Source: Alphaproteobacteria bacterium UBA3637
GTDB lineage: Bacteria; Pseudomonadota; Alphaproteobacteria; CAAHEQ01; UBA3637
Length of the DNA stretch: 46,944 nucleotides
NCBI GenBank assembly: GCA_002373615.1
Contig: DFKU01000040.1
Location: 1-46,944, forward strand
Direction of reading: 5' to 3'
The position numbers and the translations under genes were made by a program. The notes beneath the pieces were generated by a model, which saw only the letters and a program-made list of their open reading frames with translations, searched no databases and was not told the origin of the DNA. This document shows, piece after piece, positions 1 through 46,944 of this stretch. Positions within the stretch are counted from its first letter, which is position 1. Every line of letters starts with the position of its first letter.

Positions 1-364
1 TCATGGCGGAATTATAGCCCGCTATCCCTGCGACACTCAAGACGCCCATCACCGCCAGGACACCCAGCATTTCCACCATACTGCGGCCACACTCACCCGT
101 CATTACGAGCCCACCTTTTTTATATCCCGTCATTGCGAGCCCGATAGGGCGTGGCAATCTGCCAGAGATTGCTTCGTTGGCAAGGCCGCCTCGCAATGAC
201 AATGAAGGGGTAGAACGCCCATACTTCTCTGTCATCCTTGGGGCAGCGTCAGCTGAACCCGAGGATCCAGCGGTATGTAGAACCTTATTTCCTACCAGAT
301 TCTCGCTTACGCAAGAATGACAAATCGAATTAAAGTTCTTTTCTTTTTTTAATAAAATATTCAT
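1..364 (-). CDS. type IV pilin-like (class III signal-peptide-like) protein, paralog 1; 3' end runs off the window
   Basis: My own translation of the minus strand from the ATG at 364-362 (GGGAG upstream) stays open for 121 codons to position 1. It gives a 93-aa leader ending ...LVMTGECG, followed by RSMVEMLGVLAVMGVLSVAGIAGYNSAM. The same block occurs in the ORFs at 24668, 37060 and 41616. It is absent from the ORF track because no stop codon lies within the window. Confidence 0.6.
   Translation of the reverse strand, partial: MNILLKKEKNFNSICHSCVSENLVGNKVLHTAGSSGSADAAPRMTEKYGRSTPSLSLRGGLANEAISGRLPRPIGLAMTGYKKGGLVMTGECGRSMVEMLGVLAVMGVLSVAGIAGYNSAM
99..112. repeat. solo terminal half of the GTCATTGCGAG-type palindromic element
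   Basis: GTCATTACGAGCCC matches the terminus of the elements at 129-200 and 24696-24759. It lies inside the leader-peptide coding region of paralog 1. Confidence 0.5.
129..200. repeat. palindromic MITE/RPE-like element, family 1 (termini GTCATTGCGAG / CTCGCAATGAC)
   Basis: The terminal inverted repeats are at 129-139 and 190-200. There is an inner stem GCAATCT...AGATTGC. It is GC-rich relative to its surroundings. A second copy lies at 24696-24759. This copy is translated in frame within the paralog 1 leader. Confidence 0.7.
230..322. repeat. palindromic MITE/RPE-like element, family 2 (termini TGTCATCCTTG / CAAGAATGACA)
   Basis: It has imperfect terminal inverted repeats. Related copies are at 24788-24842 (partial) and 46891-46944 (cut by the window end). 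It is in frame within the paralog 1 leader. Confidence 0.65.
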
Positions 365-376
365 TTTAAACTCCCG

Positions 377-580
377 TAAAAAATTTTTTTCGCCTTGATA
401 AGAGGCGGTTGGAAGCTCGAAGCACTATCGTTTGGAATAGCGTTGCATATTTGGGAATACTCCCTTATTTTACAACCTTCCAACCGATATTTGAAATCAA
501 TTGGAAATCTATGTCTGTACACCAGACAAACCAAACGTTAAAGGACTTCGAATCCTCCGCACCGGCATCACCCGCTGTGC
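377..580 (-). promoter_or_regulatory. structured 5' leader RNA (type C) with terminator/antiterminator, upstream of pilin-like paralog 1
   Basis: Minus-strand promoter is TTGACA (plus-strand coordinates 610-615), a 17-nt spacer, then TATGAT (587-592). RNA GGUUGGAAG (plus coordinates 477-485) is perfectly complementary to CUUCCAACC (407-415), which abuts the hairpin CGCCU-loop-AGGCG (391-407) and an A/U tract. It shares the GGUUGGA(A/U)GG-N3-UAAAAUAAGGG core with the leaders at 23546 and 41408. Confidence 0.55.
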
Positions 581-628
581 AAATGTATCATATAAAATCC
601 GAAAAAATCTGTCAAGGAAAATTTGAAA

Positions 629-805: not shown

Positions 806-847
806 ACAAAAAATCCCCCTATCAGGGAATTTAAATGGCGGGATTGA
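806..847. repeat. direct repeat copy overlapping the true 3' end of tRNA-Asp
   Basis: Partner of the repeat at 629-672. It includes the last 12 nt of the tRNA (TCAATCCCGCCA on the minus strand) and the CCCT-GAT-AGGG hairpin with T-run. Confidence 0.7.
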
Positions 848-913
848 AGGGGCTCGAACCCTCGACCTTCTGCGTGACAGGCAGACGCTCTAAACCAGCT
901 GAGCTACAACCCC
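836..913 (-). tRNA. tRNA-Asp (anticodon GTC)
   Basis: Hand-folded cloverleaf on the minus strand. Acceptor stem is GGGGTTG/CAATCCC, D arm GCTC-AGCTGGTTTA-GAGC, anticodon arm TCTGC-CTGTCAC-GCAGA (GTC), T arm GAGGG-TTCGAGC-CCCTT. Discriminator is G and CCA is encoded. Confidence 0.9.
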
Positions 914-954
914 ATCGCCAATGGAGAGTATTTTAGCAGATTTAAAATTAAAAA

Positions 955-1896
955 TCAAGTATTTTTTTGATAATTTTCCAAAAAAGCCTGTAATGTAGCC
1001 ACATTATTCATTTTTTCTTGGGTAGATTCCGGCAAGATTCGGCGCACAAGTCCTGACAAAACTGCCCCCGGACCACACTCCACAAAGTGCGTAATTCCTT
1101 GTGCATTCATATACAAAACGCTTTCACGCCAACGGACAGGCGCCACTATCTGTTGCACCAATAATTGAGCAAAATTTTCTGTTTCAGCTTGGGCCGTCAC
1201 ATTTGCCACCACAGGAACACAGGGCGTTTGAAATTTAATTTGCCCCAAAACTTCTTGTATTTTTTCTTGAGCAGACTTCATCAGTGGCGAATGAAAAGCC
1301 CCTGCGACCGGCAATGGAATAACACGCTTTGCCACCATATTCTCCGCCTGCATTTTGGCGGTAGATAATGCCACCAGCGAGCCGCTTAAAACCCATTGCC
1401 CTGCTCCGTTATCATTGGCAACATAACAGCCTGAATCAGAGGCAATTTTTTGAACCACACCAGGTTCTAGCCCCAAAACAGCCATCATTCCACCTGCTTC
1501 TTTATCCCCGGCTTCTGCCATTGCCAACCCACGGATTTTTAAAATTTTTGCGGTCTGCGTAAGAGTCAAAGCCCCCGTTGCACAAAGGGCTGTATATTCC
1601 CCCAGTGAATGCCCCGCCACAAAAGAAACATTTTCTTTTAAAGAAAAGCCTTGTGCTTCCAAAGTGCGCATGACGGCCATAGAAACAGCCATAATTGCCG
1701 GTTGAGCATTTTGCGTTTGAGTTAATTCCTTTATATCTCCGTTCCACATTAAATCTGTTAAATTTTGGTGCAACGCTTCATCTACTTCCTGAAAAACGTC
1801 TTTTGCTGCAGGAAAAGCATCCGCCAAATCCCGTCCCATCCCAATAGATTGAGAACCTTGCCCCGGAAAAAGAAATGCCATCTGTTGCTTCATCAT
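955..1896 (-). CDS. fabD: malonyl-CoA:ACP transacylase
   Basis: 313 aa with N-terminal FLFPGQGSQ and the active-site motif GHSLGEY. Confidence 0.93.
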   Translation of the reverse strand: MMKQQMAFLFPGQGSQSIGMGRDLADAFPAAKDVFQEVDEALHQNLTDLMWNGDIKELTQTQNAQPAIMAVSMAVMRTLEAQGFSLKENVSFVAGHSLGEYTALCATGALTLTQTAKILKIRGLAMAEAGDKEAGGMMAVLGLEPGVVQKIASDSGCYVANDNGAGQWVLSGSLVALSTAKMQAENMVAKRVIPLPVAGAFHSPLMKSAQEKIQEVLGQIKFQTPCVPVVANVTAQAETENFAQLLVQQIVAPVRWRESVLYMNAQGITHFVECGPGAVLSGLVRRILPESTQEKMNNVATLQAFLENYQKNT

Positions 1897-23198: not shown

Positions 23199-23545
23199 TT
23201 TATTTTCCTTTCTGTCAAAGTTGTTTTCATCATTCTTGTTCTTAAGTATTAAAATTCAAATTACTTAAATTTTAATTTCTTTTATTTTTACATTTTCAGC
23301 GTATTTATTTTTATAAAAAAAGTCAAGTTGATTTTTTTATTTTTACTTCTTTAAAATTGGGGTTAAAGTAAAAATAAAATACTGCATCCGTTTCCTCTTA
23401 AGCGCCCAAAAGGTGCTTTTATTTTATAATCTGAGTGTAAGATAAATTGATGTCGGAATTGGTACAAGTCAAAAGTCTAACTGATAAAAAAATTATCGTT
23501 CGTTTTAATATTGCTTTTTTTATTTTCTTTTGCTAAAATACTTCT

Positions 23546-23719
23546 GCCCGAGAGGGTGGGGTGTGATAGCCTCTCTCAATACGTCCAGCAGGACGAAGAT
23601 CTTCAATCGGTAAAGTCCGGTTGGATGGCCGCTAAATAAGGGACTTTGTCTTGAATAGGTGGCACTATTTATTGAGTAGTTATCACCTCCAACCACTTTT
23701 TGGGTGGTTTAATTTTTTT
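23546..23719 (+). promoter_or_regulatory. structured 5' leader RNA (type A1) with terminator/antiterminator, upstream of a small lipoprotein gene
   Basis: Promoter is TTGCTT at 23511-16, 17-nt spacer, TAAAAT at 23534-39. A helix pairs AAAGUCC (23612-18) with GGACUUU (23641-47). GGUUGGA(U)GG at 23619-28 is complementary to CCUCCAACC at 23686-94. That segment overlaps the terminator stem AACCAC/GUGGUU, which is followed by a U-run at 23710-19. A near-identical copy lies at 44200-44376 on the minus strand. Confidence 0.6.
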
Positions 23720-23730
23720 CAAGGAGTATA

Positions 23731-23916
23731 ATGATGAAAAAACTATTTTTAATTTTAATCGCGTTTGCTTTGACGGGGTGCACCTATGCGGGGCCCTTTG
23801 TGACACATATATCACAAAATAAAGATGGGAGCTTAACTGTGGAAAAATGTATGGTGGAACACAATGCTTTTTCTGGGGCCATCGCCACCACAAATTGCAC
23901 CCAATCTAAAGTATAA
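23731..23916 (+). CDS. small lipoprotein (61 aa), paralog of 44004-44189
   Basis: Lipobox LTGC. The mature part begins CTYAGPFVTHISQNKDGSLTVEKCMVEHN...TTNCT, with 3 conserved Cys. It has an AAGGAG RBS. Confidence 0.75.
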   Translation: MMKKLFLILIAFALTGCTYAGPFVTHISQNKDGSLTVEKCMVEHNAFSGAIATTNCTQSKV

Positions 23917-24528: not shown

Positions 24529-24567
24529 CACTTACAATTTCAAAAAGAATCTGAGTATAATGAGGGC

Positions 24568-24645
24568 GTCTGCCTGAATAGGTAAGACTATCTACTTTCT
24601 ATATAGTTATGAACATCCACTCACTGAAACAGTGAGTCTTTGTTT
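24568..24645 (+). promoter_or_regulatory. truncated copy of the leader RNA family (3' half only) upstream of pilin-like paralog 2
   Basis: Promoter is TTACAA at 24532-37, 18-nt spacer, TATAAT at 24556-61. UGAAUAGGUAAGACUAU and CAUCC, then the hairpin CUCACUG-aaa-CAGUGAG (24620-36) and UCUUUGUUU, match the 3' part of the A/B leaders. No upstream partner for CAUCC is present. Confidence 0.45.
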
Positions 24646-24667
24646 AACTTTAAAAAGGAGATAAAAA

Positions 24668-25036
24668 ATGGACATGAAAAATAGAAAAATAAATTGTCAT
24701 TGCGAGCCCATCAGGGTGTGGCAATCTCACGAGATTGCTTCACATACGTTCGCAATGACGGGTGAGTGTGGGCGTTCTAGCCCCACCTGTCATCCTTGGA
24801 CGAGCGTCAGCGAGATCCGAGGATCCACTGGACGTGGCCTTAACGTACCTCGTTGTGCACAATACGCACAATCCGGGCGCAGTATGGTGGAAATGCTGGG
24901 CGTCCTGGCGGTGATGGGCGTCCTCAGTGTTGCGGGCATCACGGGCTATAATTCCGCTATGAATAAGCATCGCGCCAACGAGCTCTTAAACGAGGCCTCC
25001 AAACGCGCCGCACCTGTCGCCATGCATTTGATGTAG
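24668..25036 (+). CDS. type IV pilin-like protein, paralog 2 (short; possibly truncated or pseudogenised)
   Basis: A 70-aa leader ends in SG, followed by RSMVEMLGVLAVMGVLSVAGITGYNSAMNKHRANE... The ORF stops only about 52 aa after the putative cleavage site. The leader contains two palindromic elements in frame. Confidence 0.5.
   Translation: MDMKNRKINCHCEPIRVWQSHEIASHTFAMTGECGRSSPTCHPWTSVSEIRGSTGRGLNVPRCAQYAQSGRSMVEMLGVLAVMGVLSVAGITGYNSAMNKHRANELLNEASKRAAPVAMHLM
24696..24759. repeat. palindromic element family 1, copy 2
   Basis: GTCATTGCGAGCCC...GGCAATCTC-AC-GAGATTGC...TTCGCAATGAC, translated as CHCEPIRVWQSHEIASHTFAMT. Confidence 0.7.
24788..24842. repeat. palindromic element family 2, partial copy
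   Basis: TGTCATCCTTGG...GCGTCAGC..GA.CCGAGGATCCA matches the left part of 230-322. Confidence 0.55.
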
Positions 25037-27497: not shown

Positions 27498-27762
27498 TTT
27501 AATTTCCTTTCTGTTATTTAATAAAATTTGAAAGTTGACGAATTCATTATACACAATAAAAAACAAAAAAGCAAGCACTGTCATAAAAATGTCATAAATC
27601 TTCAAATGTGCTGAAAAATATGGCGTTTAAAGTTAGTCCTATTTTTCTTTAAAAATTTTTTTAAAAATATTTTTTATCAATTATGTCAATTTTATGACAC
27701 ATAAAAAACGGATTTAAAATTCTTTTCTTGACAGGGGGACCATTTTCGGGTACCATAGGGAT

Positions 27763-27913
27763 GCATTTTGATTTTGGTCAAAATGTCGGGTCTGAAAAAT
27801 CCGTACAATCTATCCGTCCAGAATCGGGCGGATGACCGCCCAATAAATTGAATAAGTGGTACTATGATTGTATAGTTTTTCAGCATCCGTCCACTAAAGC
27901 AGTGGATTTTTTT
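27763..27913 (+). ncRNA. orphan copy (type B1) of the structured leader RNA family; no downstream plus-strand gene
   Basis: Promoter is TTGACA at 27728-33, 17-nt spacer, TACCAT at 27751-56. Helices are GAAAAA/UUUUUC (27794-99 with 27876-81), UACAAUC/GAUUGUA (27804-10 with 27866-72), and the hairpin GGGCGG-AUGA-CCGCCC (27826-41). GGCGGAUG (27827-34) is complementary to CAUCCGUC (27884-91), which overlaps the terminator UCCAC-uaaagca-GUGGA plus U7 (27890-913). Confidence 0.6.
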
Positions 27914-27997
27914 AATGGCACATATGGGCGGTGCTGGCTGAATAAATTGAATAGGTCAGAGGTTTTTAATAGGACTAATACATTGAACGCCGCCCGC

Positions 27998-36779: not shown

Positions 36780-37045
36780 AATTTGGGGAAACCTGAATTC
36801 TGAGTGCCTGAAAAGGTGCAAGAGAGTTGTCGCAGACTCAATGTCACGGGTGAGTGACACCTGCCCCAAAAGGTGCGTGTGTTTTAAATAATCCTTTGGA
36901 TTTGCTCACCTATTTTTTCCCGACATGGTCGGGGGCCTTTGGTGCATGTTCAGGGGGAAACCCTAAAGACCATTGGAATCATTGTGACATTTGATTGCGA
37001 ACTCTCCGGCCACCTGAAATTCAGGTGGTGTTTAAACAATAAAAA
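36780..37045 (+). promoter_or_regulatory. long 5' leader of pilin-like paralog 3 (composite; contains repeat remnants and a terminal hairpin)
   Basis: Promoter is TTGTTT at 36744-49, 17-nt spacer, TACAAT at 36767-72. ACCUGAAUU (36791-99) is perfectly complementary to AAUUCAGGU (37018-26), which is the 3' half of the hairpin CCACCUGA-aau-UCAGGUGG (37010-28). There is an internal hairpin CCCGAC-aug-GUCGGG (36919-33). The motif CAAAAGGUGC occurs twice. Confidence 0.4.
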
Positions 37046-37059
37046 ATTGGAGTAATAAA

Positions 37060-37836
37060 ATGAAAAGAAATAATTTAAAACAAAATGTCATTCTGAGTGA
37101 AACGAAGAATCTGATGAGATCCTTCACATTCGTTCAGGATGACAGAGAATCTGGTCGGTCGATGGTGGAAATGTTGGGAGTGTTAGCAGTGATGGGCGTC
37201 TTGAGTGTCGCGGGCATTGCCGGTTATAATACAGCGATGAATCAACACCGTGCCAATGAAGCCGTTAACTCTGCGATGCGGGCGGCGGTTATGTTATCTG
37301 CGCAACGCCTCGCCAATCCATCCGCCACTTTAAGTGCCAACGGTTTAGACAGTGCCATTACTGTTGGTAATGACACGGATAAACTGGTTTTGACTTTAAG
37401 CAATGTGGATGAAAAAGTCCGTTCCAGAATTGAGGCCATGGGACTTAAAAACGCCACGATCAGCTCTGATGGAAATGGTGCTTTAACTTTTACCTTTAAC
37501 AACGATTTATCCGAAAGAAACAGTGCGGGCGGAAATGAGCAACAAGAGCCCGAGCCCGTTGCTGACCCGTGTGCAGGATTTACTGCGACGATTTGCACAA
37601 CAGCTTGCACAAATAATAATGGAAAAGCTATTTATACCTATGAAAAGAAGGGGACAGCTTGTGGTATAGACGGAGGTAGAGCTTGTGATGGAAATGGAAT
37701 TTGCAATCGATGCCCTGATGACACATATGCAGCTTTATCATCGTATGGTAATGGTGATGAGAGTAATGTACCTGGCTGTAACTGTTCTGGATCAATGGGA
37801 TGGAACTCACAGCTTGAAAGATGTGAAAAAAAATAA
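37060..37836 (+). CDS. type IV pilin-like protein, paralog 3, with Cys-rich C-terminal module
   Basis: A 32-aa leader ends in ESG, followed by RSMVEMLGVLAVMGVLSVAGIAGYNTAMNQHRANE. Next come a small beta-rich region, an acidic/Pro linker (QQEPEPVADP), and a C-terminal module with 12 Cys. Confidence 0.65.
   Translation: MKRNNLKQNVILSETKNLMRSFTFVQDDRESGRSMVEMLGVLAVMGVLSVAGIAGYNTAMNQHRANEAVNSAMRAAVMLSAQRLANPSATLSANGLDSAITVGNDTDKLVLTLSNVDEKVRSRIEAMGLKNATISSDGNGALTFTFNNDLSERNSAGGNEQQEPEPVADPCAGFTATICTTACTNNNGKAIYTYEKKGTACGIDGGRACDGNGICNRCPDDTYAALSSYGNGDESNVPGCNCSGSMGWNSQLERCEKK
37086..37144. repeat. palindromic element family 3 (TGTCATTCTGAG...CAGGATGACA)
   Basis: Inverted termini with an inner stem GAAGAATCTG/..; translated in frame as VILSETKNLMRSFTFVQDD within the leader peptide. 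Confidence 0.65.
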
Positions 37837-39568: not shown

Positions 39569-40175
39569 ATTTCACCCCCGATATTTTTAAGATAACCCCT
39601 TCTGAATATTCATTTGGAAATTCTTCAATTTGTGCGTCAAATTGGCAATTTTTTATTTCCTCTTTATACCCTTTTCCTTTTGGTAAAATCCAAATTGTTT
39701 CACGTGAAACAATTTTTCGACACAATATAAGTATTTGATTTAATTCAGAAAATGCACGACAAGTTAAAACATCACTTTTTAAATTTTCTATCTTTTCTAC
39801 CCGTTCGGATAGGATATTTAAATTGAGTCCTAATTGCCTATTTACCTCTTTCAAAAAGATAGCTTTTTTATTATCGCTTTCAATTAAAGTAATTGTTAAA
39901 GGAAAATTGGCAACTTTATTTAAAATTCCCAAAATAATTCCAGGAAATCCGCCGCCGCTCCCCACATCCGTTAAAGTTTTACTTGAATCAGGAATATATT
40001 TCCAAAGTTGAGCAGAATCCAAAACATGTCTTTTTTGAAGATCAGGGATAGTATTTTTTGAAATTAAATTTACATGTTTTTGCCATTCAAGCAAAACTTT
40101 GATATATTTTTCAATATCTTGTTGTGATTCCTTTAAAACTTTTTCAAATTGTTTCACGTGAAACATTCCCCTCAT
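39561..40175 (-). CDS. rsmG: 16S rRNA (guanine527-N7)-methyltransferase
   Basis: GSGGGFPG SAM-binding motif and the conserved rsmG-parA-parB order. Confidence 0.92.
   Translation of the reverse strand: MRGMFHVKQFEKVLKESQQDIEKYIKVLLEWQKHVNLISKNTIPDLQKRHVLDSAQLWKYIPDSSKTLTDVGSGGGFPGIILGILNKVANFPLTITLIESDNKKAIFLKEVNRQLGLNLNILSERVEKIENLKSDVLTCRAFSELNQILILCRKIVSRETIWILPKGKGYKEEIKNCQFDAQIEEFPNEYSEGVILKISGVKYE
39696..39711. promoter_or_regulatory. parS: parS site 1 (TGTTTCACGTGAAACA)
   Basis: Exact match to the canonical 16-bp parS palindrome. It lies inside the rsmG 3' region and is read as VSRET. Confidence 0.9.
40150..40165. promoter_or_regulatory. parS: parS site 2
   Basis: Exact TGTTTCACGTGAAACA at the rsmG 5' end, read as MFHVK. 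Confidence 0.9.
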
Positions 40176-40229
40176 CTGATTGTTAAGATAAGGAGATTAT
40201 AAATAAATTAAAATAAAAAAACAATAGTT

Positions 40230-40634
40230 TTAAAAATAAAATTTTACAGTATTTTTTGAACAATTACTTTTTTCTATATTTTTTGCACCAGCAAAATGAT
40301 TATCAAAACTATTACAGAGTTTTTCTTCTACCCGATTTAAAGTGATAGAAAATCCCCCATTTGATTCAGATTTAGCCGAAGCAGGATACCCAGCAATAGA
40401 AAATGTTTCACGTGAAACATTTTGAGGATTTGACAACATAAGTGTTTGAATTTCAATATTTTTTATTTGTAATTCTTGAGCAATTTTATTCTTTTTTAAT
40501 TGAAAATTAGCTGTATTATATCCTTTGACAGATTGAGCAGTCATCATTCCGTCCACAGCCATACTTCCCATTAGGTCAATCATTTGCGCTGAAGTAGAAA
40601 GTGATGTACCCAGTATTAGTAAAAATAAAATCAT
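40230..40634 (-). CDS. hypothetical secreted protein
   Basis: The start at 40634 overlaps the dnaQ stop (ATGA). It has a signal-like N terminus, MILFLLILGTSLSTSAQ. It contains parS site 3. Confidence 0.55.
   Translation of the reverse strand: MILFLLILGTSLSTSAQMIDLMGSMAVDGMMTAQSVKGYNTANFQLKKNKIAQELQIKNIEIQTLMLSNPQNVSRETFSIAGYPASAKSESNGGFSITLNRVEEKLCNSFDNHFAGAKNIEKSNCSKNTVKFYF
40404..40419. promoter_or_regulatory. parS: parS site 3
   Basis: Exact 16-mer within a 22-bp perfect palindrome, AAATGTTTCACGTGAAACATTT. Confidence 0.9.
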
Positions 40635-41317
40635 ATCTCCCCCCATATTGGATTTTTAATTTTTGATAAAAATTCTGTGTGGGCAGATTCTTCCGTTGGA
40701 TCTAAATTCCACTCACGTACAGGAAATGTTTCACGTGAAACATTTTTTAAATTATGACTAACTGTTTGATTTTGTTGTTTTTTTTGAGTGGAAGAAAAAT
40801 TTAATTCCCGATTTGTAATCAATTCCAGATACACGTCAGCCAATAATTCTGAGTCCAACAAAGCCCCATGGACCGTCCGGCGCGAAGCATCCACTTTATA
40901 GCGCTTGCATAATTCATCCAAGTTCACTCTTGCCCCTGGAAATTTTTTCCGCGCAATTAATAATGTATCAATGACAGGATTTGGTAATTCTGCTTTTCCA
41001 CAGGCCTTTAATTCGTAATTCAAAAAATTCATATCAAAGGCGGCATTATGGATCACAAGCGGCGTATTTTCGCCAACGAAGGCCAAAAAATCATCTGCAA
41101 TTTCTTCAAATAATGGCTTGTCAGACAAAAATTCTTCCGTCAAACCGTGCACAGCTACAACTTCCTGGCTGATAGCGCGCATTGGATTAATGTATTGATG
41201 ATACGTCTTTCCGGTCGGTAAGTGGTTTTCCAATTCCACACACCCAATTTCAACAATCTTATCCCCCTTTTCGGGATTCAGTCCTGTTGTTTCTGTATCC
41301 AAAACGATTTCACGCAT
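40631..41317 (-). CDS. dnaQ: DNA polymerase III epsilon subunit (3'-5' proofreading exonuclease)
   Basis: Exo I DTETTGL, Exo II HNAAFD, Exo III HGALLDSELLADVY. Confidence 0.93.
   Translation of the reverse strand: MREIVLDTETTGLNPEKGDKIVEIGCVELENHLPTGKTYHQYINPMRAISQEVVAVHGLTEEFLSDKPLFEEIADDFLAFVGENTPLVIHNAAFDMNFLNYELKACGKAELPNPVIDTLLIARKKFPGARVNLDELCKRYKVDASRRTVHGALLDSELLADVYLELITNRELNFSSTQKKQQNQTVSHNLKNVSRETFPVREWNLDPTEESAHTEFLSKIKNPIWGEI
40727..40742. promoter_or_regulatory. parS: parS site 4
   Basis: Exact 16-mer within the same 22-bp palindrome, in the dnaQ C-terminal tail (NVSRETF). Confidence 0.9.
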
Positions 41318-41407
41318 AAAGGCTCCTTCTAAGGTATTTTAACAAAAAATGCCTATAAAAGCAAGATTTATGTTGCGCTTTTGATTTTTATATGGTAGTG
41401 TAATTTT

Positions 41408-41591
41408 GAATCAAGCAGGTGCTTGGTTCGGCTGGGCGTAAGACCCCTGCAAAGTTGCTGATAAAGCGTAAAAACTGCCTTTTAGTTCAAAGGACTGGAA
41501 GGCAGGTAATAAAGGGCCTTTCAGGGCTTTTAATAACTGCGCATAACTTTGTAATGTCTTAACTTCCAGTCGCTGATAGCGACTTTTTTTA
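41408..41591 (+). promoter_or_regulatory. structured 5' leader RNA (type D) with terminator/antiterminator, upstream of pilin-like paralog 4
   Basis: Candidate promoter is TTGCGC at 41373-78, 17-nt spacer, TAGTGT at 41396-401. GACUGGAAG (41493-501) is perfectly complementary to CUUCCAGUC (41563-71). That segment overlaps the terminator AGUCGC-ugaua-GCGACU plus U7 (41568-91). The core GGACUGGAAGGcagGUAAUAAAGGG parallels the leaders at 377-580 and 23546-23719. Confidence 0.55.
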
Positions 41592-41615
41592 ACATTTAAC
41601 GAAAGGAAAAATAAA

Positions 41616-42212
41616 ATGAGTAAAAGTCAAAAGAAGAACGAACAAGGACGGTCCATGGTGGAAATGCTGGGGGTTTTAGCGGTGATCGGTGTCTTGAGTG
41701 TCGCAGGCATTGCAGGGTATAATACAGCCATGCGGTCACACAAAGCCAATGAAGTTTTGAATGCAGCCAGTATGTTTTATGTGCTAGCAAAAGCCCAAAA
41801 TCAGGGGAATGGTCCAAGTGGTAATATAAACTATGCTGATGTGGGTGGTACAAATCCATCAGGGGCAACCCTCACCTACACAGACAATGCTTTCACCATC
41901 ACTTTCACGGATACGGATGATTGCACCATGGCCGCGAATAAGTTGGGTGACAAGGCAACTACTGATTGTACCAATAAAAAATTAACCGTTAACTTCGGGG
42001 AAACAACAACATCCCAAACACCAGAAGAACCTCAGGAAGATTTAACAATTGTAGACATGCAAGACGGAAATTGTCCTTCTGGATATAAACCTACAGGGAT
42101 AGATGATAAGTGTGCTAAATCATTAACAGATGCAGCAAAGCTATGTTCAAGCGGATGCGCGCAAGATACACCACTAGAATATGCTTGCGTTGATTCCAGT
42201 TATTGTCTATGA
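41616..42212 (+). CDS. type IV pilin-like protein, paralog 4 (archetype with short leader), with Cys-rich C-terminal module
   Basis: MSKSQKKNEQG/RSMVEMLGVLAVIGVLSVAGIAGYNTAM. This is a short basic leader ending in Gly, with Glu at +5 and a roughly 20-aa hydrophobic helix. It continues with a small beta region, an acidic/Pro linker (TPEEPQED), and a C-terminal module with 6 Cys. It has an AAAGGA RBS. Confidence 0.7.
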   Translation: MSKSQKKNEQGRSMVEMLGVLAVIGVLSVAGIAGYNTAMRSHKANEVLNAASMFYVLAKAQNQGNGPSGNINYADVGGTNPSGATLTYTDNAFTITFTDTDDCTMAANKLGDKATTDCTNKKLTVNFGETTTSQTPEEPQEDLTIVDMQDGNCPSGYKPTGIDDKCAKSLTDAAKLCSSGCAQDTPLEYACVDSSYCL

Positions 42213-44199: not shown

Positions 44200-44376
44200 A
44201 AATAAAATTTAAACCACCCCAAAAGTGGTTGGAGATAGGAAACTACTCAATAAATAGTGCCACCTATTCAAGACAAAGCCCCTTATTTAGCGGCCATCCA
44301 ACCGGACTTTACCGATTGAAGATCTTCGTCCTGCTGGACGTATTGAGAGAGGCTATGATACCCCACCCTTCCGGGC
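44200..44376 (-). promoter_or_regulatory. structured 5' leader RNA (type A2), near-identical copy of 23546-23719
   Basis: Minus-strand promoter is TTGCAA (44406-11), 17-nt spacer, TAGAAT (44383-88). The reverse complement aligns almost base for base with A1. The GGGACUUU to GGGGCUUU change keeps pairing as a G-U wobble. The terminator is CCAACCAC-uuuu-GGGGUGGUU. Confidence 0.6.
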
Positions 44377-44419
44377 AAGGCTATTCTAACACAAACAAAT
44401 ATAATTTGCAAGACAATAA

Positions 44420-46575: not shown

Positions 46576-46668
46576 GGTTGTCTTTTTGTTATTTTTTTAT
46601 CAGCGCTTTTTTATAAAAGTGTAAGTATTTTGTTTGACATTTAAAATAATTTTGATTATTCTGAAGTG

Positions 46669-46820
46669 GCACTTGGCAAGGGCCAATGTGCCGGATTTGA
46701 AAAGTCCGTATAGTGTTGTCCGTCCTGTATTGGATGGATGACCGTCCAATATAATGAATAAACGGTACTGTCACTATACAGCTTTTCAACATCCGTCCAC
46801 TTTTAAAAGTGGAATTTTTT
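46669..46820 (+). promoter_or_regulatory. structured 5' leader RNA (type B2) with terminator/antiterminator, upstream of pilin-like paralog 5
   Basis: Promoter is TTGACA at 46634-39, 17-nt spacer, TATTCT at 46657-62. Helices are GAAAAG/CUUUUC (46699-704 with 46782-87), GUAUAGUG/CACUAUAC (46708-15 with 46772-79), and the hairpin UUGGAUGG-AUGA-CCGUCCAA (46730-49). GGAUGGAUG (46732-40) is complementary to CAUCCGUCC (46790-98), which overlaps the terminator UCCAC-uuuuaaaa-GUGGA plus a U-run (46796-820). Confidence 0.6.
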
Positions 46821-46848: not shown

Positions 46849-46944
46849 ATGGACAAATTATTAAAAAAAGAAAAGAATTTAAATTCGATTTGTCATTCTT
46901 GCGTAAGCGAGAATCCGGCAGGAAATAAGGTCCTACATACCGCT
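46849..46944 (+). CDS. type IV pilin-like protein, paralog 5 (5' end only; runs off the window)
   Basis: The sequence from the ATG at 46849 (AAAGGA RBS) is MDKLLKKEKNLNSICHSCVSENPAGNKVLHTA. By hand alignment, 87 of 96 nt are identical to the reverse complement of 269-364 (paralog 1). Membership in the pilin-like family is inferred from that homology only. Confidence 0.45.
   Translation, partial: MDKLLKKEKNLNSICHSCVSENPAGNKVLHTA
46891..46944. repeat. palindromic element family 2, copy cut by the window end
   Basis: TGTCATTCTTGCGTAAGCGAGAATCCGGCAGGAAATAAGG... matches the reverse complement of 230-322. Confidence 0.6.

Follow-up and report, generated by a model that had tools for sequence, protein, structure and literature searches.

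Two copies of a structured RNA element about 150 nucleotides (nt) long, termed B1 and B2, are present in a contig of the uncultured Alphaproteobacteria bacterium UBA3637 (NCBI GenBank assembly GCA_002373615.1, contig DFKU01000040.1, positions 1 to 46,944 of the forward strand; 'the window' refers to this whole stretch of 46,944 nt). Both are members of the B family, which comprises at least 22 distinct sequences and is found only in metagenome-assembled genomes (MAGs) of uncultured Alphaproteobacteria and in related metagenome contigs. The B elements are structured RNAs under selection. A second fold, which excludes several helices of the first, has compensated changes of its own, and the potential to form it is conserved. 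The B RNA is probably a conditional transcription attenuator that acts as the leader of the following gene, as for B2 and for 17 of the 20 loci that extend downstream. We infer that switching between the two folds occurs and controls read-through.

A preliminary description of the window, made from its letters alone, had proposed that B1 and B2 each possess a sigma70-like promoter and an intrinsic terminator. All of these features are present, at the following positions.

27728-27756 (+): B1 promoter, with the -35 element TTGACA at 27728-27733, a 17-nt spacer and the -10 element TACCAT at 27751-27756; 10 of 12 matches in a consensus scan
27763-27913 (+): B1 RNA, the orphan copy, spanning the predicted start through the U tract; 152.8 bits with the B-family covariance model R1; fold z = -7.1
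46634-46662 (+): B2 promoter, with TTGACA, a 17-nt spacer and TATTCT; 10 of 12 matches in a consensus scan
46669-46820 (+): B2 RNA, the leader copy; 151.6 bits with R1; fold z = -9.0

The z scores compare fold stability with that of dinucleotide shuffles, and none of 200 shuffles was equally stable. As judged by consensus match, a sigma-70-type promoter occurs at one register in all 21 of 21 family members, each with at least 8 of 12 matches. Terminator stem-loops at 27889-27907 (B1) and 46796-46813 (B2) are each followed by a T run. Across the family, G-C-containing hairpins with stabilities of -6.2 to -10.9 kcal/mol lead directly into a U tract, as is expected of intrinsic terminators.

B1 and B2 are homologous and align with a mean column identity of 82%, and several of their differences preserve base pairing. 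The inner helix is UACAAUC/GAUUGUA in B1 and UAUAGUG/CACUAUA in B2, so that three pairs are altered on both strands, exactly as the preliminary description had recorded. The outer helix, CUGAAAAA/UUUUUCAG in B1 and UUGAAAAG/CUUUUCAA in B2, is also compensated as it had reported, but at two pairs, one more than it had counted. In addition, both GGGCGGAUG of B1 and GGAUGGAUG of B2 are complementary to CAUCCGUCC, the final three bases of which begin the terminator stem.

Representatives of the family were located by pattern and covariance searches. Scanning one genome per GTDB species with AGYTTTTCARCATCCGTCCAC yielded 15 loci in nine MAGs, with one to three copies each, all titled 'MAG: Alphaproteobacteria bacterium'. 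A metagenome scan with a pattern omitting the 3' motif added four further members and one chance match. The covariance model R1 recovers 22 distinct members from MAGs and metagenomes, with scores of 91-157 bits, and finds no match at E <= 0.1 in 681 kb of unrelated viral DNA. No B-family match occurs in plasmid and phage collections, and an over-loose pattern applied to viral contigs gave no true member among the first 80 loci searched. At locus L016, positions 813-1163 (-) contain a tandem of two complete B-type units, both equipped with a promoter and a terminator; a gene, which encodes a lipoprotein of 135 amino acids (aa), follows only the second. MutS homologues place the window within the uncultured Alphaproteobacteria. 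The reduced-genome gut Alphaproteobacteria of order Rs-D84 (PMC12306168) may be the same lineage.

The preliminary description had matched the element to none of the riboswitch classes it considered, and database searches agree. At the gathering threshold, Rfam 15 identifies a tRNA alone in the whole window. Under permissive settings, no Rfam model matches B1, B2 and five other members consistently, and the models for the cyclic di-GMP (c-di-GMP) riboswitches c-di-GMP-I (RF01051) and c-di-GMP-II (RF01786) have no match even at E values up to 10. The sRNA-Xcc1 model (RF02221) aligns to B2 with 26.9 bits, below its gathering score of 53, and has no match in B1 or the five other members. Membership of B2 in that family was rejected, and the sub-threshold, non-recurring match is regarded as a chance resemblance. 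Literature searches found no prior description of this RNA family.

The conserved fold consists of a 5' hairpin (P0), a long stem (P1/P2) and a three-way junction in which P3 and P4 take part, and the terminator lies directly against P1. The parts of the two window copies are as follows.

27764-27785 (+) in B1, 46669-46690 (+) in B2: P0, the 5' hairpin (CAUUUUGA / UCAAAAUG in B1); 8 of 8 pairs have two-sided changes across the family
27787-27810 (+) in B1: 5' strands of P1a (CGGG), P1b (CUGAAAAA) and P2 (GUACAAUC), with a conserved UCC in between at 27800-27802
46692-46704 (+), 46705-46707 (+) and 46708-46715 (+) in B2: P1 5' strand, UCC and P2 5' strand
27812-27834 (+) in B1: P3, comprising site a (AUCCGUCC, 27812-27819), a loop and the GG strand (GGGCGGAUG, 27826-27834); 97.7% of cells pair
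46718-46739 (+) and 46732-46740 (+) in B2: P3 and GG strand
27835-27860 (+) in B1, 46741-46766 (+) in B2: P4, in B1 a stem ACCGC/GUGGU around the conserved loop CCAAUAAAUUGAAUAA; 5 of 5 pairs two-sided, 100% paired
27861-27883 (+) in B1: J4/2 (ACUAU), P2 3' strand (GAUUGUAU), AG and P1b 3' strand (UUUUUCAG)
46767-46771 (+), 46772-46779 (+) and 46782-46789 (+) in B2: J4/2, P2 3' strand and P1b 3' strand
27884-27913 (+) in B1: site c (CAUCCGUCC, 27884-27892), which is the P1a 3' strand plus the start of the terminator, the terminator UCCAC..GUGGA (27890-27906) and the U tract
46790-46798 (+) and 46796-46813 (+) in B2: site c and terminator, with the U tract extending to 46820

Covariation was computed on a model-guided alignment (A5) of 22 related sequences and compared with 500 shuffles and with slid controls. 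MAFFT alignments misaligned P0 and P2, and the model-guided alignment was used instead; RNAalifold applied to an unfitted MAFFT alignment already yields P1, P3 and P4. In A5, 96.2% of cells pair and 25 of the 46 pairs have two-sided changes. None of the 500 shuffles reaches such values, and slid controls give 35-47%. Changes are distributed unevenly among the helices. P1a, which joins CGGR to UCCG, is invariant or changes on one side; taken jointly with P1b, it has 5 of 12 two-sided pairs. P2 is a helix of 7-9 base pairs (bp) with highly variable sequence, in which 6 of the 7 pairs of the main helix are two-sided, as is a detached eighth pair. P3 consists of AUCCGUCC, a loop of 2-9 nt and GGNCGGAU, and has one-sided, wobble-compatible changes only. 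Because P3 contains G-U pairs, the + strand can be recognized as the RNA. P4 combines its covarying 5-bp stem with a conserved, AU-rich, 16-nt loop, (CC)AAUAUAUUGAAUAA. The unpaired J4/2 segment reads RCUGU, and the terminator, which directly abuts P1a, is invariant. Conserved loops and junctions (the P4 loop, J4/2 RCUGU and UCC/AG) are embedded among covarying helices, a generic hallmark of riboswitches.

Other structures were considered. The preliminary description had drawn a hairpin with an AUGA loop. This hairpin can be drawn in both B1 and B2, but it is not a conserved fold across the 22 members: it pairs in 89% of cells, mostly through G-U pairs, and its outer pairs are broken in 9/22 and 5/22 members. 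It also clashes with P4, whose five pairs all covary. The AUGA hairpin may form transiently in some members. Pairing of the P4 loop with the P1b 3' strand was rejected because, judged by eye, the complementarity fails to track the P1b changes in locus L027. Similarly rejected was a leader peptide starting with the AUG at the beginning of B1 P0, a codon that other members do not conserve and that no Shine-Dalgarno sequence precedes. Beyond the B1 terminator lies a solo hairpin, bearing the conserved loop sequence of P4, that may be the remnant of another copy.

27933-27959 (+): solo P4-like hairpin, G CUGGC UGAAUAAAUUGAAUAG GUCAG, 3' of the B1 terminator; local R1 match to model positions 75-101, 15.2 bits, E 0.12

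A second set of pairings is mutually exclusive with P1, P2 and P3. In 99.5% of cells, the GG strand, GGNCGGAUG (alignment columns 75-83), has the potential to base-pair with CAUCCGUCC at columns 139-147; slid controls reach 31-56%. The preliminary description had seen in two copies that a GG-rich strand is complementary to the segment preceding the terminator, and this property is conserved in the B family and recurs with other sequences in the sibling leader types described below. Site c is invariant in B-type RNAs, including all three complete members that were found by the pattern without site c. The conserved UCCG can also pair with the 5' CGGR to form an alternative hairpin, P1'. At locus L017 these strands read CAGA:UCUG, a change that is compensated in P1' and mismatched in P1a. 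Finally, CUGU and ACAG flank the P2 3' strand and can form a mini-hairpin, P5 (CUAU...AUAG within 27861-27883 of B1), in which the pair at columns 113/127 is A-U in B1 and locus L022 and G-C in the other 20 members. Mean helix energies are -11.7 kcal/mol for P3, -14.1 for the antiterminator helix, -4.1 for P1a and -8.0 for the terminator.

These alternatives suggest how attenuation might proceed. In the terminator fold, the presumed default, the 5' CGGR would pair with AUCCG of site c to form P1a, and P1b and P2 would extend the stem. Site a (AUCCGUCC) would serve as an anti-antiterminator by holding the GG strand in P3, and P4 would cap the three-way junction. The terminator, which is itself site c paired with the 3' arm, would then form directly beside P1. 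In the alternative fold, the 5' CGGR would pair locally with the conserved UCCG as P1', and the P2 3' strand would become the loop of P5. The freed GG strand could form nine base pairs with CAUCCGUCC, creating an antiterminator that removes the base of the terminator stem. Polymerase would then read into the pilin-like or lipoprotein gene. Some signal would shift the balance, presumably via the P2/P3/P4 junction and the conserved AU-rich loop of P4. The hairpin, antiterminator and terminator logic of the preliminary description fits the conserved complementarity, but the competitor had been misassigned: the GG strand is held by the upstream AUCCGUCC in P3 rather than by the AUGA hairpin.

Several observations weigh against the attenuator model. 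B1 has no same-strand gene downstream; instead, an open reading frame (ORF) of 74 aa and mutS converge on it. The orthologous site in the closest relatives lacks B1, so there is no syntenic support, and the earlier view that B1 is a leader like B2 does not hold. The first unit of the L016 tandem likewise has no gene to regulate. Since site c never varies within the B type, the antiterminator helix has no two-sided covariation there, and two B' variants, L148 and L155, carry one uncompensated A/C mismatch in this helix. The pair counts given above are biased upward somewhat because the covariation alignment was fitted to the model. Energetically, nested folding with the antiterminator forced is on average about 10 kcal/mol less favorable before the terminator 3' arm is added and about 15 kcal/mol less favorable in the full RNA. 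By this measure the terminator-compatible fold is the default, and the other state must be favored by some factor or by a kinetic effect. By our own geometric estimate, retaining P1b and P2 alongside the antiterminator would require a strained pseudoknot.

Support for a role as leader comes from the genes that follow. In the 17 loci mentioned above, a same-strand ORF with a Shine-Dalgarno sequence starts 36 nt or less past the U tract, a gap too short for a separate promoter of the downstream ORF. These ORFs mostly encode pilin-like proteins or the 135-aa lipoprotein. A type IV prepilin N-terminus has a glycine at -1, a glutamate at +5 and then a hydrophobic helix. Nine downstream ORFs carry GRS[ML][VI]EMLG within the motif G|RSMVEMLGVLAxxGVLS. 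In a phmmer search of PDB, one pilin-like protein of the window with such an N-terminus, encoded at 41616-42212, gives a match to PilA5 (8qqj), a type IV pilin, with E = 0.0018, and no Pfam or NCBIfam model reaches its cut-off on the downstream proteins. Three downstream ORFs represent a single 135-aa lipoprotein family, more distant orthologues of which carry diverged relatives of the B leader. The gene that follows B2 is truncated.

46849-46944 (+): ORF after B2, starting 31 nt past the end of the B2 model match at 46817, preceded by AAAGGAUG and cut by the window end

The N-terminus of this ORF is MDKLLKKEKNLNSICHSCVSENPAGNKVLHTA. Over the first 32 residues it is almost identical to the ORF that begins at 364 (-). 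The latter continues into GRSMVEMLGVLAVMGVLSVAG, and the ORF after B2 is therefore probably pilin-like.

The window holds five pilin-like paralogues (24668-25036, 37060-37836, 41616-42212, 1-364 (-) and 46849-46944). Their N-terminal helices (GRSMVEMLGVLAV.GVLSVAG) are almost the same, and their C-terminal parts are rich in cysteine and diverge; the 109 nt that are conserved correspond to a repeat, D1. REP-like palindromic repeats (GTCATTGCGAGC..GCAATC and CTGTCATCC..GGATCCA) occur at 129-269, 24696-24827 and 46880-46944, and also at loci L014, L017 and L027. They are translated in frame in long N-terminal extensions of the pilin-like ORFs, before the presumed prepilin cleavage site. The two window ends, 1-364 (-) and 46849-46944 (+), are inverted copies of one pilin-like 5' coding region, and recombination between them is conceivable. 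Three independent assemblies break at the identical point after B2; these are contig breaks induced by the repeat.

B1 and B2 are accompanied by leaders of other types, and this 47-kb window has at least seven leaders in all.

23535-23712 (+): A-type leader before the 61-aa lipoprotein ORF 23731-23916; full-model R1 alignment, 35.6 bits, E 3.5e-6
44209-44384 (-): another A-type leader, followed by the ORF of a paralogous small lipoprotein; R1 22.7 bits, E 0.0027
376-586 (-): A'-type leader before the pilin-like ORF starting at 364 (-); its minimum free energy fold shows the B architecture
41400-41597 (+): C-type leader before the pilin-like gene 41616-42212, with the same kind of fold
36785-37045 (+): D-type leader before the pilin-like gene 37060-37836, with the same kind of fold

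A further A-type leader is present at locus L005 (15738-15914 (-)). The A-type leaders are distant homologues of the B RNA, and each is followed by the gene of a small lipoprotein (MKKLFL..LTGCTYAGPFVT..; about 60 aa). In every sibling type, the 3' strand of a P3-like hairpin is complementary over 7-12 bp to a segment that overlaps the 5' arm of the terminator, and the sequences involved differ. The frequency with which shuffled sequences do as well varies among types.

A: GGUUGGA / UCCAACC, 7 bp; from 71/2000 shuffles (Watson-Crick pairs) to 223/2000 (Watson-Crick plus G-U pairs, L005 copy)
A': CGGUUGGAAG / CUUCCAACCG, 10 bp; 1/2000 shuffles
C: GACUGGAAG / CUUCCAGUC, 9 bp, overlapping the terminator; 2/2000 shuffles
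D: UGGUCGGGGG / UCUCCGGCCA, 10 bp with G-U; 41/2000 shuffles
Locus L157: GACGACUGGAAG / CUUCCGGUCGUC, 12 bp with G-U; 0/2000 shuffles

A short E leader at 24553-24650 (+), before the pilin-like ORF at 24668, has a terminator hairpin and no terminator/antiterminator complementarity.

Leaders behave as exchangeable modules before orthologous genes. The pilin-like gene at 41616 has a C-type leader in the window, whereas its syntenic orthologue at locus L006 (1-626 (-)) has a B-type leader. The two proteins are 52% identical over 132 aa, and both genes adjoin the same RNase T gene. In the same manner, the leader of the 135-aa lipoprotein gene varies by genome and may be B, B' or C-like; one genome has none.

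What the attenuator would sense is less certain. One specific version of the model is a riboswitch for a metabolite or second messenger, in which the P2/P3/P4 junction and P4 loop would form the aptamer and ligand binding would lock P3 to cause termination. The conserved loops and junctions between strongly covarying helices and the two mutually exclusive folds are consistent with this proposal. Surface and pilin genes are also typical targets of c-di-GMP riboswitches. However, P1 and P2 together comprise about 20 bp and are computed to be stable without ligand, and the RNA resembles none of the known riboswitch classes. Moreover, orthologous genes carry different leader types that have few junction nucleotides in common, which would be unexpected for one ligand pocket; this interchangeability argues somewhat against a single conserved pocket. 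A riboswitch is thus a tentative assignment. The broader idea that B, A, A', C and D constitute an undescribed riboswitch superfamily, which senses a small molecule or second messenger to set the expression of a repertoire of variable pilin-like adhesins and lipoproteins in uncultured gut Alphaproteobacteria, is equally speculative; on that reading, orphan copies such as B1 might also act in trans on sibling leaders via the common CGGA/UCCG pairing elements.

No less plausible than a riboswitch, and just as tentative, is an attenuator under protein control, wherein an RNA-binding protein recognizes a common feature such as the CGGA motifs or the AAUAA/GAAUAA loops and stabilizes one of the folds. 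The interchangeable types have an architecture and short AU-rich motifs in common rather than a pocket, and the very stable default fold suggests that the alternative state is reached only with the help of an active factor. Against a protein regulator, the loci examined contain no candidate protein and no conserved neighboring regulator.

Alternatively, B elements could be independent genes for 150-nt small RNAs (sRNAs) that act in trans, with gene adjacency being incidental or secondary. Each copy has its own promoter and terminator, there are one to three copies per MAG, and the default fold favors termination; the orphan B1 and the two complete units of the L016 tandem are readily accommodated as well, and B1 and the first L016 unit are autonomous transcription units. 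Nevertheless, the 17 copies directly preceding same-strand ORFs leave those ORFs no room for a promoter of their own, and the pairing of leader and gene is maintained across species. Only one long stretch is both conserved and unpaired, an AU-rich loop that would make a weak seed; neither a seed nor targets elsewhere were identified, and all of the conserved alternative pairings join strands within the RNA itself. We consider trans-acting sRNAs unlikely as a general explanation. Essentially excluded is that B is a functionless repeat or mobile element or a form of sRNA-Xcc1, as its multiple copies, its ability to change location and the B2 score with RF02221 could suggest, since that match is confined to B2 among the members scanned, the plasmid and phage collections and the first 80 viral-contig loci searched include no B element, and the compensatory changes and P3 G-U pairs show selection on one RNA strand.

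Two other features of the window were noted. The sequence TGTTTCACGTGAAACA is found as four perfect copies in about 1.1 kb (39687-40746) adjoining gidB, parA and parB. It matches the parS consensus, which suggests an origin-proximal region. The tRNA gene at 839-913 (-), which scores 68 bits, is accompanied by near-duplicate 46-nt repeats at 627-672 and 802-847, the second of which overlaps the tRNA 3' end.

If the attenuator model is correct, a poorly known group of uncultured gut and rumen Alphaproteobacteria controls many of its surface proteins via one modular RNA device. Among these would be two lipoprotein families and several pilin-like proteins, whose cysteine-rich C-terminal domains vary. 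The B RNA is a well-supported orphan riboswitch or attenuator candidate, with nearly symmetric competing pairings among two CGGA and three UCCG strands, and represents an RNA family missed by current annotation libraries. Its members provide a natural variant series for testing which features matter, and offer a route toward understanding how attachment structures are regulated in these organisms. The type of mechanism is already known. What appears not to have been described before is the RNA family with its superfamily, the genes they target and the near symmetry of the competing strands.

Several known systems resemble the B RNA in part. The sub-threshold sRNA-Xcc1 alignment on B2 matches the outer stem, the first hairpin with its AU-rich loop and the second hairpin of that family to the antiterminator helix, P4 and P5, and happens to trace the alternative fold exactly. 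The alpha-r14/alpha-r35 'cuckoo' family comprises multi-copy small RNAs of Alphaproteobacteria. Like B, they are present as multiple paralogues in a genome, and every copy has a promoter and a terminator of its own; unlike them, B has no Rfam match and no C/U-rich anti-Shine-Dalgarno loops, and its copies lie immediately before same-strand ORFs. Some c-di-GMP-I and c-di-GMP-II riboswitches are located upstream of pilin genes, such as pilA1 of Clostridioides difficile. They share with B a structured leader and terminator before type IV pilin-like genes, but B matches neither RF01051 nor RF01786 and differs in its fold and conserved nucleotides. The S-box (SAM-I) leader is a terminator/antiterminator/anti-antiterminator system to which B has no sequence or structure match by cmscan. 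The closing stem of B is much longer and more stable, and its targets encode surface proteins rather than metabolic enzymes. In organization, however, the two are alike: each is a 5' leader with its own promoter and a multi-helix sensor domain, in which a sensor strand also supplies the 5' half of an antiterminator, a putative one in B, and this antiterminator and the 5' arm of the intrinsic terminator overlap.

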